Origin: Chloroflexota bacterium
GTDB taxonomy: Bacteria; Chloroflexota; Dehalococcoidia; Lucifugimonadales; JADFKI01
DNA: 64,000 bases
Direction of reading: 5' to 3'
Assembly: GCA_027623195.1 (NCBI GenBank)
Contig: JAQBUT010000001.1
Coordinates: 1-64,000, forward strand
The notes beneath the pieces are model-generated. The model was given only the letters and a program-made list of their open reading frames with translations, made no database searches and was not told the origin of the DNA. Below are positions 24,137 through 63,468 of this stretch, in pieces; position 1 is the first letter of the stretch, and the number at the start of each line of letters is the position of its first letter. Both the position numbers and the translations under genes were made by a program.

Positions 24137-25276
24137 ATGAAAATTACAGGCATCAAGACCAACATATTTTCGTCATTCCACAGCAACGCCAAACGAAACT
24201 GGCTGATCGTACGTCTGACCACGGACGAAGGTCTGGAAGGCTTGGGCGAAGCCTCCATGCTGGACTACGATCCCATACTGGTAAAGGTTCTCGAGGAGTG
24301 GACGGAACGCTACCTGGTTGGCAAGGACCCGCTGCACCACGAGCTGCACTGGATTCGCATGTTCAATGACAATCTTGGGCGTGGCGGCAGGCTATTCAGC
24401 ACGGTGCTCTCAGGCATAGACCTGGCCATGTGGGACCTAAAGGGCAAGGCCCTGGGCGTCCCAGTGTACGAGCTTCTGGGCGGGCCATTCATCGACCGCA
24501 TCCGCGTATACGCCAACGGCTGGTACACCAATCCCGGCACCCCGGAGCAGAACGCTGAGGAGGCCAAGGTAGTCGTAGCCAAGGGATACACGGCCATGAA
24601 GTTCGACCCATTCGGACAGGATAACTACATGACCATCTCGCCGCATGAAGCGCAACTCGCAGAGGACCGGGTTGCCGCCGTGCGAGAAGCAGTCGGGCCT
24701 AACATTGACGTGCTGGTAGAGGTCCACGCCAAGTTCAACGTGTACACCGCCGTCGGCCTGGGTCAGCGGCTTGAGAAGTATCGGCCGTTTTGGTTCGAGG
24801 AGCCGGTATCCCAAGAGAATGTTTCGGAGATGAAGCAGGTGCGCGACAAGGTCAACATACCTATTGCCACCGGCGAGAGGCTGTACACCAAGTTCCCGTT
24901 CTTCGAACTGGTTAAGCACGAGGCAATAGATATACTGCAGCCCGACATATGCAACGCAGGCGGCATCACCGAGCTGAAGAAGGTCGCCGCAATAGCTGAG
25001 GCGCAACACGTTATGATGGCGCCACACAACACCAACGCCGCAGTTGGCACGGTGGCCAGCATGCACCTTGACGCCTCCATGCCCAACTTCCTTATACAGG
25101 AATATCACGCCGAGCATTACGAGCCTCACTACTTCGACATCTTCCCCGGCCTGCCCAGACAGCAGAACGGTTACGTCGACCTGCCGCAGGGCCCTGGCCT
25201 TGGCCTTGGCTTCGACGAGGAGATGGCGAACGCCCATCCTTACCTTCCCCAGACGCACAAGGAACGGGGTATCTAA
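24137..25276 (+). CDS. Mandelate racemase/muconate lactonizing family enzyme (galactonate dehydratase-like)
   Basis: WDLKGK..GVPVY.LLGG, WFEEP, ATGER, QPD and APHN motifs. Confidence 0.9.
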   Translation: MKITGIKTNIFSSFHSNAKRNWLIVRLTTDEGLEGLGEASMLDYDPILVKVLEEWTERYLVGKDPLHHELHWIRMFNDNLGRGGRLFSTVLSGIDLAMWDLKGKALGVPVYELLGGPFIDRIRVYANGWYTNPGTPEQNAEEAKVVVAKGYTAMKFDPFGQDNYMTISPHEAQLAEDRVAAVREAVGPNIDVLVEVHAKFNVYTAVGLGQRLEKYRPFWFEEPVSQENVSEMKQVRDKVNIPIATGERLYTKFPFFELVKHEAIDILQPDICNAGGITELKKVAAIAEAQHVMMAPHNTNAAVGTVASMHLDASMPNFLIQEYHAEHYEPHYFDIFPGLPRQQNGYVDLPQGPGLGLGFDEEMANAHPYLPQTHKERGI

Positions 25277-25453: not shown

Positions 25454-26515
25454 ATGACGGAAATGAAATTAGACACTCTTGAAGGCGTCCTTCAAGAGGT
25501 CGAAAAGATATTTGAAGCGGAAGGCGTCGATATAAGAAATAGGCTCTACAAAGAGCTGATAGTCGACGCGCTCAAGTTCAAACGGGACAACCTGGACACG
25601 CTTGATCTGAAGATTGCTAACCGCAGCATGGCAGAATTTCGATACGCGGCGCGGGTGTTCAAGCCCTACAGAGGCTTTCGCAAGGTATCGATTTTCGGCT
25701 CTGCCCGTACACCCGAGGACGATCCGTACTACGCGTTGGCCGTGGACTTCGCACGGAGGCTCGTCCAGGAACATTTCATGGTCATCACAGGCGCGGCCTC
25801 TGGCATAATGAAGGCTGGCAACGTGGGTGCTGGGGCAGAACAGAGCTTCGGGGCCAATATACTTCTGCCGTTCGAGCAGGGGGCTAACGAGGTTATCGTA
25901 GACGACCCTAAGTTGATCACGTTCCGCTACTTCTTCACGCGCAAGCTATTCTTCCTCATGGAGGCCCACGGCGTAGCGCTGTTCCCAGGTGGATTCGGCA
26001 CTCACGACGAAGGTATGGAGACGCTGACGCTCATACAAACAGGCAAAGCGCCGCCGATGCCGCTGGTGCTAATGGAGCTACCGGGCGAGGACTACTGGGA
26101 AAGTTGGGACCAGTTCATCAGGAAGCAGCTTCTGGGGCGCGGGCTGATCGCAGAGGACGACTTGTGCCTCTACAAGATAGTGCACTCCGCCGAGGATGGC
26201 GTGGCGTGGATGAAGCACTACTACTCCACGTACAACTCCATGCGACGGGTTAGGGACCGACTGGTGATTAGGCTGGAGAAGCAGTTGACGAACGAGCACG
26301 TTGAGGAGCTAAACGAGACCTTCGGCGGCCTTCTAAAGAAAGGCACGATTAAAAAGACCAAGGCGCTAGCGCAAGAAGCTGACCAGCCCGAACTGCTGGA
26401 AAAACCACGCCTGGCTTTCAACTACAACGATCGCCATGCGGGCCGTCTCAACCTAATGGTCCAGACTATCAACGAGATGGGACTGTCCATATCAGGTAAA
26501 TCTGAATCTGATTAG
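25454..26515 (+). CDS. LOG-family (TIGR00730-like) nucleotide phosphoribohydrolase
   Basis: FGSAR, ITGA..GIM, YFFTRK and FPGGFGT.DE motifs. Confidence 0.9.
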   Translation: MTEMKLDTLEGVLQEVEKIFEAEGVDIRNRLYKELIVDALKFKRDNLDTLDLKIANRSMAEFRYAARVFKPYRGFRKVSIFGSARTPEDDPYYALAVDFARRLVQEHFMVITGAASGIMKAGNVGAGAEQSFGANILLPFEQGANEVIVDDPKLITFRYFFTRKLFFLMEAHGVALFPGGFGTHDEGMETLTLIQTGKAPPMPLVLMELPGEDYWESWDQFIRKQLLGRGLIAEDDLCLYKIVHSAEDGVAWMKHYYSTYNSMRRVRDRLVIRLEKQLTNEHVEELNETFGGLLKKGTIKKTKALAQEADQPELLEKPRLAFNYNDRHAGRLNLMVQTINEMGLSISGKSESD

Positions 26516-26540: not shown

Positions 26541-26577
26541 AAAAAAGCAGGCCAGGTCATATACATACCTCGCCTGC
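26541..26577 (-). terminator. Intrinsic terminator of the putative ncRNA
   Basis: GCAGGC(G)AGGU..ACCU(G)GCCUGC followed by U6. Confidence 0.8.
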
Positions 26578-26873
26578 TGCTTGCGATTCCTTCGTCTTGC
26601 ACCGTAACCCCGCACTCCCGATCATAGAACCGGATGGCCGCTCTCCGTAAGCGCCAGCAGTCTGGGCTATGGAGCATCTGGCCTAGTTGGCTTTAACACG
26701 CGGGGCTTTCGGTTTCGGTCACCCCATCGGCTCTCACAGAACAATCACCTGCAAATTATGGGAGCCAACGGGGGCGCGACTAGGAAACTTCCACATATGG
26801 TTAAGAACGAAATTTCTAACTATAAGCACCTCCACTCAGCTCAAGATCCGGGAGAACCTTCCTGGTATCCTCC
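26541..26873 (-). ncRNA. Putative ~330-nt structured non-coding RNA, family unassigned
   Basis: Own promoter and intrinsic terminator; multiple helices with G-U pairs on the minus strand; no credible ORF. Confidence 0.65.
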
Positions 26874-26879
26874 AACTTC

Positions 26880-26907
26880 AGTATAGCACTTCGCCAGGGG
26901 CAGTCAA
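26880..26907 (-). promoter_or_regulatory. Sigma-70 promoter with extended -10
   Basis: TTGACT-N16-TATACT with TGn just upstream of the -10. Confidence 0.75.
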
Positions 26908-26996
26908 AGGCTACGCATCAGTCTATACAGGCATGTAGGGACAACGCTTTGTAATTTTCCTAATTCTTGAAAAATAATAATGTTAAGATATACGTC

Positions 26997-28022
26997 ATGA
27001 AAATTATTGGCATCGAAAGTTCCTGTGACGAGTCTGCGGCAGCCGTAATTGAGGACGGCAGGGTCATCCATTCCAACGTGATAGCCTCCCAGGCGGAGAT
27101 GCACGCGCAATACGGCGGCATCGTGCCTGAAGTGGCATCACGGCAGCACATGATTACGATAATTCCTGTGATGCAGGAGGCTTTGGAGCAGGCCGGTATG
27201 AAGGCTTCAGAGTTGGACGGCATTGCGGTGACGTACGGGCCGGGACTGGCAGGCTCTTTGCTAATCGGTGTTAACGCAGCCAAAGGGTTAGCACTAGCCA
27301 ACGAGTTGCCATTTATAGGAATCAACCATCTTGAGGGCCACATCTACGCTTCGTGGCTAGAGGATATGGACCCGGAGCAGGGGACAGGGTTCCCTCTGAT
27401 ATGCCTTATCGCGTCGGGCGGCCACACAGATCTCATCCTCATGGAGGGTCACGGACGCTACACCCTAGTCGGCAGGACCCGTGACGATGCAGCGGGGGAG
27501 GCCTTCGACAAGGCGGCGCGTGTCCTTGGTTTGGGATTCCCAGGCGGACCTGCCATCCAAAAGGCGTCCGAGTCCAGCGTTGCCGGCGAGGCGAGGTTCC
27601 CCCGACCCACCGTCAAAGACTCTTTGGACTTTAGCTTTAGTGGACTGAAATCAGCCGTGGTGCGCCGCGCCCAGGAGAAGCATATGTACCCGCCCCCTGA
27701 GGACTCTGAACTAGACCCTCAACAGGTGGCCAACGTGGCTGCGGCCTTCCAGGAGGCTATGGTGGACTCCATGGTGACGCAAACTATTGCTGCGGCCAAG
27801 CTGCACAAAGTTAAGGGTATTCTTCTTGGCGGAGGCGTCGCTTCCAACAGCCTGCTGCGGGTGGAGATGAGAAAACGAGCGCCCGTGGAGGTTATCGTTC
27901 CTGCGCCCGCCCTGTGCACAGACAACGGAGCGATGATCGGGGCTGCGGCATTCTTTCATCTGCGGCACGGCAACCGCTTTCAGTGGGATATGGATGTGAT
28001 ACCTAACCTTCGGCTCGGTTAG
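26997..28022 (+). CDS. tsaD: tRNA N6-threonylcarbamoyltransferase
   Basis: GIESSCDE, GGIVPEVASRQH, GPGL.GSL, NHLEGH, SGGHT, DDAAGEAFDK and CTDNGAMI motifs. Confidence 0.97.
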   Translation: MKIIGIESSCDESAAAVIEDGRVIHSNVIASQAEMHAQYGGIVPEVASRQHMITIIPVMQEALEQAGMKASELDGIAVTYGPGLAGSLLIGVNAAKGLALANELPFIGINHLEGHIYASWLEDMDPEQGTGFPLICLIASGGHTDLILMEGHGRYTLVGRTRDDAAGEAFDKAARVLGLGFPGGPAIQKASESSVAGEARFPRPTVKDSLDFSFSGLKSAVVRRAQEKHMYPPPEDSELDPQQVANVAAAFQEAMVDSMVTQTIAAAKLHKVKGILLGGGVASNSLLRVEMRKRAPVEVIVPAPALCTDNGAMIGAAAFFHLRHGNRFQWDMDVIPNLRLG

Positions 28023-55353: not shown

Positions 55354-55569
55354 AGTAAACCAACCTTTTTGTTACAAGGTGCATAAGGCATTTTAGTTGT
55401 TACACCAAATCATCTAAATACTGCCCCGCATGTAATATAGACGACTGTTGGTCGAATTTTGTTCCCGTTATCACCCTGGGGAGGCATTCATTGCCTTTGC
55501 ATGGCTTCGTTTCGTTGACTTTTCATGGGGCGTGGGATATTCTGAGTGCACTAACAAATGAATAAAATC

Positions 55570-55668
55570 GCGAGGTAGGGGAGCTTGGAACCGCCAGGCT
55601 GAGAGGCACCGACAATTCGGTGCGACCCCTTGCACCTGACCTGGGTAATGCCAGCGCAGGGACTTACC
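55570..55668 (+). promoter_or_regulatory. TPP riboswitch
   Basis: AGGGGAGC..GCTGAGA..GACCC..ACCTGA.CTGGGTAATGCCAGCGCAGGGA directly upstream of thiG. Confidence 0.95.
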
Positions 55669-55687
55669 ATACAAATGTTGTGTACAG

Positions 55688-63392: not shown

Positions 63393-63468
63393 TGGTGGCC
63401 CCAACGGAATTCGAATCCGTGTTTACGGCTTGAAAGGCCGTCGTCCTAGGCCACTAGACGATGGGGCC
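63393..63468 (-). tRNA. tRNA-Glu(UUC)
   Basis: GGCCCCATCGTCTAGTGG..CT-TTC-AA..TTCGAAT..GGGGCCACCA; 76 nt with encoded CCA. Confidence 0.97.

Follow-up and report, generated by a model that had tools for sequence, protein, structure and literature searches.

A stand-alone small RNA gene beside tsaD, probably an extra member of a Dehalococcoidia family that joins a short reading frame to a conserved RNA fold

Introduction

What is encoded on the minus strand between tsaD and a LOG-like gene, at positions 26907 to 26541 of the window? The window is the whole stretch of Chloroflexota DNA that was analysed here (64,000 nt), and its genome is called G000 in the following. An earlier note on this stretch described a standalone, possibly novel non-coding RNA at this place, saw no convincing open reading frame in it, and took two crossing helices for a pseudoknot or a switch. 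Here, we report on the transcription signals of the unit, its homologues, its reading frame and its fold, and discuss which kind of gene is in best agreement with all of them.

Results

A self-contained unit on the minus strand

The unit at 26907-26541 (minus strand) opens with the promoter TTGACT-16-TGcTATACT, continues with a leader of about 40 nt and a structured body, and closes with a terminator hairpin followed by U6. Judged from these signals, it is a genuine, self-contained small gene with its own predicted transcription start and end. Its features, from 5' to 3', are as follows.

26880..26907, minus strand: sigma-70-type promoter, with -35 box TTGACT (26907-26902), 16-nt spacer, TG (26888-26887) and -10 box TATACT (26885-26880)
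26834..26873, minus strand: 5' leader of about 40 nt, with a start near 26873 inferred from the -10 spacing and a small hairpin GGAG..CUCC inside
26827..26833, minus strand: Shine-Dalgarno (SD) sequence GGAGGUG
26796..26824, minus strand: predicted hairpin A, with UAUAGUU (start codon and codon 2) on one side of the stem and AACCAUA (Asn-His codons) on the other
26734..26823, minus strand: short frame of 29 codons plus UGA, IVRNFVLNHMWKFPSRAPVGSHNLQVIVL, the same frame as the ORF 26734..26835
26823-26782, minus strand: conserved codons 1-14 of this frame, with Trp at 26793-26791 and Pro14 at 26784-26782
26722..26773, minus strand: helix B, 17 bp, 26773-26757 with 26738-26722, with a variable loop
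26708..26721, minus strand: junction segment, a conserved block, family consensus CCAAAGCCGGCGG, window copy UGACCGAAACCGAA
26606..26707, minus strand: long-range helix, AGCCCCGC (26707-26700) with GCGGGGUU (26613-26606), which encloses a variable region and hairpin D
26617..26634, minus strand: hairpin D, UCCGGU-loop-AUCGGG, family consensus UCCGGUC..GACCGGGA
26541..26577, minus strand: intrinsic terminator, stem GCAGGCGAGGU..ACCUGGCCUGC, then U6 at 26546-26541

The promoter that the earlier note had proposed, TTGACT-N16-TATACT with an extended -10, is borne out: it shows 10 of 12 consensus matches in addition to the upstream TG, and the same layout recurs in the counterpart of the unit in G002. 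Four promoter-like sites were counted in the region, against 0.9 +/- 0.8 in shuffles. The proposed terminator with U6 at 26541-26577 is seen in the sequence as well as in the MFE fold; a terminator scan of the region, which has a loop limit of 8, listed none, and the loop here is 9. The single-sequence fold of the minus strand is mildly better than that of shuffles (z -2.25), and the plus strand folds better still (z -3.65). For this reason, it is the promoter, terminator, G-U pairs and reading frame that we use to assign the strand.

Downstream, the unit is flanked by the convergent LOG-like gene (25454-26515, plus strand), and tsaD lies on the other side. The tsaD ORF (26967-28022, plus strand) is listed from a TTG at 26967; the alignment with its relatives sets in only at about residue 5-10, and the ATG at 26997 (MKIIGIES...) is probably the likelier start. 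A promoter-like site, TTGTAA-18-AATAAT, is located at 26949-26978 near the tsaD start. Approximately 12 nt upstream of the -35 box of the unit we observe a 13-nt box, CCTGTATAGACTG (26919-26931, minus strand), which G000 and G002 share letter for letter and which G001, a genome that does not have the unit, lacks. This box may be a regulator site or a piece of the divergent tsaD promoter.

No known RNA family at the locus

None of the 4227 Rfam families matches the locus at the gathering thresholds. With E-values up to 10, three matches are reported on the plus strand, all at chance level (13.7-20.1 bits, with thresholds of 50-90), and eight homologous loci, searched at E up to 0.01, matched nothing in Rfam. 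The genome has its RNase P and its tmRNA elsewhere, in agreement with the earlier note, which saw no signature of either in the unit. The 6S RNA family RF00013 was not found in this genome, which is 87% complete. Other known RNAs of the window are a TPP riboswitch (RF00059) at 55567-55679 on the plus strand, with 60.2 bits at a gathering score of 54.3, and a tRNA gene (RF00005) at 63396-63468 on the minus strand with 66.3 bits.

A family found by covariance models

A BLAST search of the unit against 61 relatives reported matches in three genomes including G000 itself, the other two being pieces of 27-53 nt. Searching its own genome with blastn-short did not find the second copy either, which surfaced only with a covariance model. 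Three such models were used. R1 was derived from the 5' part shared by G000 and G002, and matches G068 and G063 from two other families of the order; these matches are weak but convincing, and neither of them adjoins tsaD. R2 is a model of three full-length sequences (G000, G068 and G063). It matches loci over their full length in 41 of the 151 genomes sampled from the order, and one of these loci is the second G000 copy at C35:54415-54693. R3 comprises 32 sequences and spans 143 positions from the SD to the junction. It detects the family in 49 of 151 genomes of the order sample, which represent 36 of 89 genera (G000 included), in six of 151 genomes of an even sample of the class, i.e., G000 and five of the 150 others, and in the phylum sample of 151 in G000 only (none of 150 others). 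As strict filters were applied to samples with incomplete genomes, these counts are to be read as found or not found in the genomes searched, and the E-values of the models are rough owing to a shortened calibration. So far, and as judged by these searches, the family appears restricted to Dehalococcoidia, mostly to one order. No description of this RNA was found in those portions of the literature on Dehalococcoidia, Chloroflexi and SAR202 that were accessible.

The window copy, a training sequence in both models, scores 231.5 bits over its full length with R2 and 107.5 bits with R3, and carries helix B, the long-range helix, hairpin D and the terminator in the order of the family. Family members are 265-300 nt long and have a leader of 35-55 nt, and helix B begins 9-10 nt past the Pro14 codon throughout. 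The distance from the end of the best promoter-like -10 to the SD downstream of it is 34-60 nt for 26 of the 32 members, a descriptive value given without a shuffle control. The family is mostly single-copy, with two copies in three of the 49 genomes that have a match. G028 carries a tandem pair about 150 nt apart (L140:1097-1345 and 1501-1779), whose upstream copy is divergent in the frame; G074 has two equal-scoring copies 140 kb apart on opposite strands (G074:C2:1488546 and 1627973).

A conserved short reading frame

For the comparison of members we rely on A6, a sequence-only MAFFT alignment of 32 sequences from 31 genomes. All 32 aligned members contain the frame M-V-R-x-[FY]-V-L-N-H-x-W-[KH]-F-P, anchored on an invariant Trp codon, and the window copy fits it as (I)VRNFVLNHMWKFP. 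An SD is located 4-7 nt ahead of the start position in 32 of 32 matches; every one opens with GGAGG, often as AAGGAGGUG, and within A6 two of its G columns never vary and another two reach a conservation of at least 90%. The start codon is AUG in 24 members, GUG in four, UUG in two and CUG in one. The window copy has AUA (26823-26821) instead of a canonical start (AUG, GUG or UUG) ten codons before the Trp codon.

Coding tests were computed from 26 of the 32 sequences, six being left out for a differing start-to-Trp spacing. Entropy at codon positions 1, 2 and 3 amounts to 0.80, 0.72 and 1.32, respectively. Among differing codon pairs, a fraction of 0.334 is synonymous when read in frame; in the other two frames this drops to 0.111 and 0.070. 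Stop codons number zero in frame, against 23 and 15 off frame. Arg is encoded by AGA, AGG, CGC, CGT and CGA in this table, and by CGG too in the Trp-anchored listing of frames. The coding signal stops at Pro14. Beyond this codon the periodicity is gone (1.27/1.25/1.22), and conservation tracks helix B rather than the peptide. Frames are 19-48 codons long across the family, which corresponds to a tail of 5-34 residues past the conserved part, and the stop codon falls within helix B in 25 of 32 members.

Protein resources hold next to nothing of this peptide. A profile scan of four of the 32 peptides against Pfam-A and NCBIfam returned no family at E up to 10, and a Protein Atlas search gave no usable match. 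With a profile built from 23 peptides, just three unnamed proteins were matched in 5.8 billion, two of which are mis-called longer frames. Comparing G000 with G002 in six frames reveals a protein-level signal no greater than the nucleotide identity, and the frame becomes apparent only once distant homologues are compared. The earlier judgement that the unit holds no convincing ORF is thus wrong at the level of the family, where 14 conserved codons come with codon periodicity, an SD and a start. On this comparative evidence, the family frame is a strong candidate for translation.

A conserved multi-helix fold

Four elements emerge independently from RNAalifold on A6, namely helix B, hairpin D, the terminator and the long-range helix (GGCYCCGC:GCGGRGCC); an alifold prediction from two sequences alone was uninformative. 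Over the whole structure of the 32 members, 80.9% of the cells are paired, compared to 39-47% when the partners are slid, and double-change cells number 188 versus 51-57. None of 500 shuffles attains the observed values. However, the homologues are related, so that shuffle counts overstate independence, and since this kinship inflates the shuffle control we regard the slid control as the more relevant one.

The individual helices show the same picture. Helix B is paired in 85.8% of the cells and 11 of its 13 pairs are changed on both sides, while the long-range helix is paired in 84.4%, with seven of eight pairs changed on both sides, e.g., GGCUCUGC:GCAGAGCU. For hairpin D the values are 79% and five of seven pairs, and for the terminator helices of the family 87% and ten of ten. 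Both the 17-bp helix and the AGCCCCGCG/UGCGGGGUU helix of the earlier note, which correspond to helix B and the long-range helix, are confirmed and show compensatory changes among the 32 homologues. In the window copy, the 5' strand of helix B overlaps codons 18-22, and the first nucleotides of its 3' strand include the UGA stop (26736-26734).

Hairpin A requires a more careful reading. Its cells are paired in 81.2%, versus 24-48% in the slid control, it has 23 double-change cells versus 2-9, and the flanking pair 18:49 occurs in CG, GC, UA, UG and GU variants. Its core consists of conserved codons, and two measures do not rise above the shuffles (308/500 and 70/500), so that the pairing could in part be a by-product of peptide conservation. 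The inner part of the hairpin, columns 25-28 with 38-41, is not conserved, 16-21 of 32 members being unpaired there. For a pairing of the SD with UUCC, the columns are nearly invariant and give no covariation to score.

Two further candidate pairings were considered. A pairing of the leader with the junction showed registers that do not agree with one another, and a pairing of the post-Pro segment with GCGGGGCC in the alifold of the R2 sequences was, on inspection, given up for the long-range helix. The other helix of the proposed pseudoknot or switch, CCUAGU/ACUAGG (26784-26779 with 26687-26682), is present in the window copy and is not conserved: it is in register with six of six pairs only here, and with 0-4 of six in the other 31 sequences. 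Complements of at least 6 nt to this segment occur in five of 32 members, which is about a rough estimate of chance. As the helix is specific to this copy and at chance level elsewhere, the pseudoknot or switch has no comparative support.

Genomic context

Neighbours were counted at 31 loci with a crude ORF picker, one locus having no long ORF downstream. At 18 of the remaining 30, the nearest long ORF downstream is convergent. Neighbours vary between loci; recurring pairs, such as MFS with MgsA, tyrS or enolase, look like local synteny. In L148 and L151 (G008 and G005, from the same family as G000), tyrS follows the unit in the same orientation after 146-246 nt, and this arrangement in one genus is the sole recurrent co-directional context that was observed. 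Enolase-superfamily (MR_MLE) genes are found near the unit in G000 (24137-25276, plus strand), G068 and G078, a recurrence probably due to how common such genes are in the genomes concerned rather than to linkage.

The unit is not tied to tsaD. Homologues occur in many contexts, another copy in G000 itself is located on C35, and a scan of genome contigs with the LOG-like protein returned six loci, of which two congeners only keep the adjacency to tsaD. In a metagenome scan with TsaD, all relatives had at most 57% identity. The adjacency to tsaD is incidental.

The window copy as an extra paralogue

R2 finds one match each elsewhere in the genomes of G001, G002 and G004 (three of four handles), and the one in G002 is 81% identical to the C35 copy of G000. 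The genus therefore has a resident copy, found in G000 (C35), G001, G002 and G004, and the unit beside tsaD is an extra one. The resident copy of G000 (C35:54415-54693, minus strand, equal to L164:1016-1294) starts with UUG, encodes the peptide LERVFIMNHAWKFPLMAPAGELEG, has a variant long-range helix and is located downstream of an SRPBCC/polyketide-cyclase-like gene.

The unit beside tsaD has a syntenic counterpart of 265 nt in G002, of which the promoter, the first approximately 100 nt and the terminator align and the remainder does not. This counterpart is degenerate: other residues stand in place of His, Trp and Pro, the 3' blocks are gone, R3 does not hit it, and its single-sequence fold is no better than that of shuffles (z -0.51). 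In G001, about 150 nt are all that separates the same pair of genes, and the unit is absent there. A FastTree tree of the 32 members does not group the window copy with the resident copy as sisters, and the highest identity of the window copy is the 57% that it shares with G068. Because this tree leaves the origin unsettled, we make no claim of transfer.

Variation was read from the contigs of four DNA runs. The AUA start, which turns one G-C pair of hairpin A into an A.C mismatch, is unchanged in contigs from both studies and thus in two populations. The second population differs from the window at seven of 701 nt, and six of these differences are inside the unit from promoter to terminator. 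A plus-strand G>T at 26881 makes the -10 the consensus TATAAT; another change keeps a pair of helix B as G.U and turns Pro18 into Ser; two changes break predicted pairs, at 26613 in the long-range helix and at 26585 in the tail hairpin. Such differences would fit a relaxed constraint on the window copy. Going by its start codon, this copy probably sees little translation, if any, and it may be on the path of drift that its counterpart in G002 has already taken.

Discussion

Implementing all facts, we favour the following reading with a probability of roughly 0.6: the family would encode a translated small RNA of the dual-function type, in which translation and fold are coupled, and the window copy would be an extra paralogue of this Dehalococcoidia family. 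We infer the coupling from three observations. A hairpin holds the start, the last conserved residue of the peptide is a Pro whose codon precedes helix B by 9-10 nt, and the stop is usually found within this helix. In this mechanism, hairpin A would gate initiation at the start codon. A ribosome that reaches Pro14 and beyond would have to open helix B, since the frame usually ends inside it. The transcript would then yield a peptide as well as a structured RNA, and would be neither a plain non-coding RNA nor a cis-acting leader.

The description of the locus as a standalone novel non-coding RNA holds in part. The stand-alone unit, the conserved structure and the lack of a match among the 4227 Rfam families agree with it; the unit is not simply non-coding. 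That the frame is a mere by-product of constraints on a purely non-coding structured RNA seems highly improbable to us. It would be in line with the base pairing of part of the frame in hairpin A and helix B and with the missing AUG of the window copy, but it does not account for the three-base periodicity and synonymous excess, Arg codons that vary at all three positions, the absence of in-frame stops in 26 sequences versus 23 and 15 off frame, or an SD at fixed spacing. The opposite view, a plain small-protein gene in which only the peptide of about 25 residues is functional and the 3' helices merely stabilise or terminate its mRNA, draws on the strong coding signal and SD and on the fact that stable hairpins often end small mRNAs. 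We consider it rather unlikely: constraint covers the first 14 residues only, the tail of 5-34 residues lacks codon periodicity, and approximately 150 nt downstream keep a multi-helix architecture with conserved unpaired blocks in 32 sequences from 31 genomes, beyond what stability needs. A peptide whose conservation ends exactly at a Pro codon just 5' of a hairpin also recalls a cis-acting leader-peptide sensor, where the ribosome would be paused by the peptide it is making and the terminator would serve as attenuator of downstream genes, and the position upstream of tyrS on the same strand in two genomes of one genus (L148 and L151) points the same way. We consider this improbable, as 18 of 30 loci have a convergent gene for a downstream neighbour, among them the window with its LOG-like gene, a run of regulatory codons is missing, and inspection by eye of the terminators of three members revealed no alternative pairing that covaries with the terminator. 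A variant that dispenses with the downstream gene is somewhat speculative and, in our opinion, unlikely, too: the family would be a trans-acting structured RNA controlled by a short sensor peptide, M-V-R-x-F-V-L-N-H-x-W-K-F-P, which, possibly on a metabolite signal, makes the ribosome pause at Pro14, so that the base of helix B is held open and the 3' domain refolds. If true, this would be a ribosome-arrest switch that has no downstream gene.

For the window copy itself, decay to a functionless pseudogene of the family is a minor, though serious, possibility. Its start is AUA, the syntenic copy in G002 has lost His, Trp, Pro and the 3' blocks along with its R3 match, the unit is absent beside tsaD in G001, and six of the seven population differences fall inside it, two of them breaking pairs. 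On the other hand, all helices and the 14-residue frame of the window copy are intact, it reaches 107.5 bits with R3 (being part of the training set), its promoter is strong and has the consensus TATAAT in the other population, and the AUA is fixed in both populations rather than being one among many lesions. Extra copies and the loss of a start would likewise be accounted for by a module similar to a type I toxin-antitoxin system, with the mRNA of a toxic peptide whose start is masked. The sequestered start and possibly SD, the stand-alone unit with its patchy extra copies, and one copy with a mutated start next to another that has decayed are all compatible with it. We give this explanation the smallest chance of all, because the peptides lack a long hydrophobic, membrane-spanning stretch, the family is mostly single-copy (two copies in three of 49 genomes), and a few neighbour pairs recur (MFS with MgsA, tyrS, enolase).

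Returning to the translated small RNA with coupled fold, the closest known kind are the dual-function sRNAs SR1/SR1P, SgrS/SgrT, RNAIII/hld and VcdRP (PMC12310071, PMC12612679, PMC3526287, PMC8672173). They share with our family a short RNA, transcription and termination of its own, and a small conserved frame together with conserved structure. The family has no sequence or structural homology to them; its frame is located at the 5' end with the start in a hairpin and only the first 14 codons constrained, and its structured part is a large multi-helix domain and not a seed region. A putative assignment to the dual-function class would draw on the comparative coding signal of the family and on its conserved 3' fold.

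Other known systems share single traits with the family. The size range, a housekeeping-style single copy and an own promoter and terminator are common to tmRNA, RNase P, 6S and SRP RNA (RF00023, RF00010 and RF00013 for the first three). Unlike tmRNA, the frame of the family has an SD and an AUG, and unlike 6S RNA, the 5' and 3' ends of the family do not pair.

TnaC, ErmBL/ErmCL and SecM are short regulatory leader or arrest peptides. The family resembles them in its short peptide with invariant Trp and Pro, and in a conservation that ends at the Pro codon just before an RNA hairpin and leaves later codons unconstrained. It differs from arrest peptides in that most of its loci have no regulated downstream gene (18 of 30 convergent) and in the lack of a known arrest motif such as RAGP or RAPP. 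The trp attenuator rnTrpL of Sinorhizobium, with its peptide peTrpL, is likewise a small transcript that encodes a Trp-containing micropeptide and has a role as RNA besides.

Dehalococcoidia of this kind are known almost solely from metagenomes, and the accessible parts of the literature contained no description of RNA-level regulators for them. The family occurs in about one third of the sampled genomes of one order, yet it has no match in Rfam, Pfam or NCBIfam, and protein catalogues are essentially devoid of it. From a methodological point of view, structured RNAs that have been called 'ORF-free' deserve a recheck of their homologues before they are labelled as non-coding. From a biological point of view, the layout of this family is unusual, with a start in a hairpin, peptide conservation that ends at a Pro before a hairpin, and a large conserved 3' domain. 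The family would thus provide a case, tractable in vitro, for mutual control between the translation of a tiny frame and the folding of an RNA.
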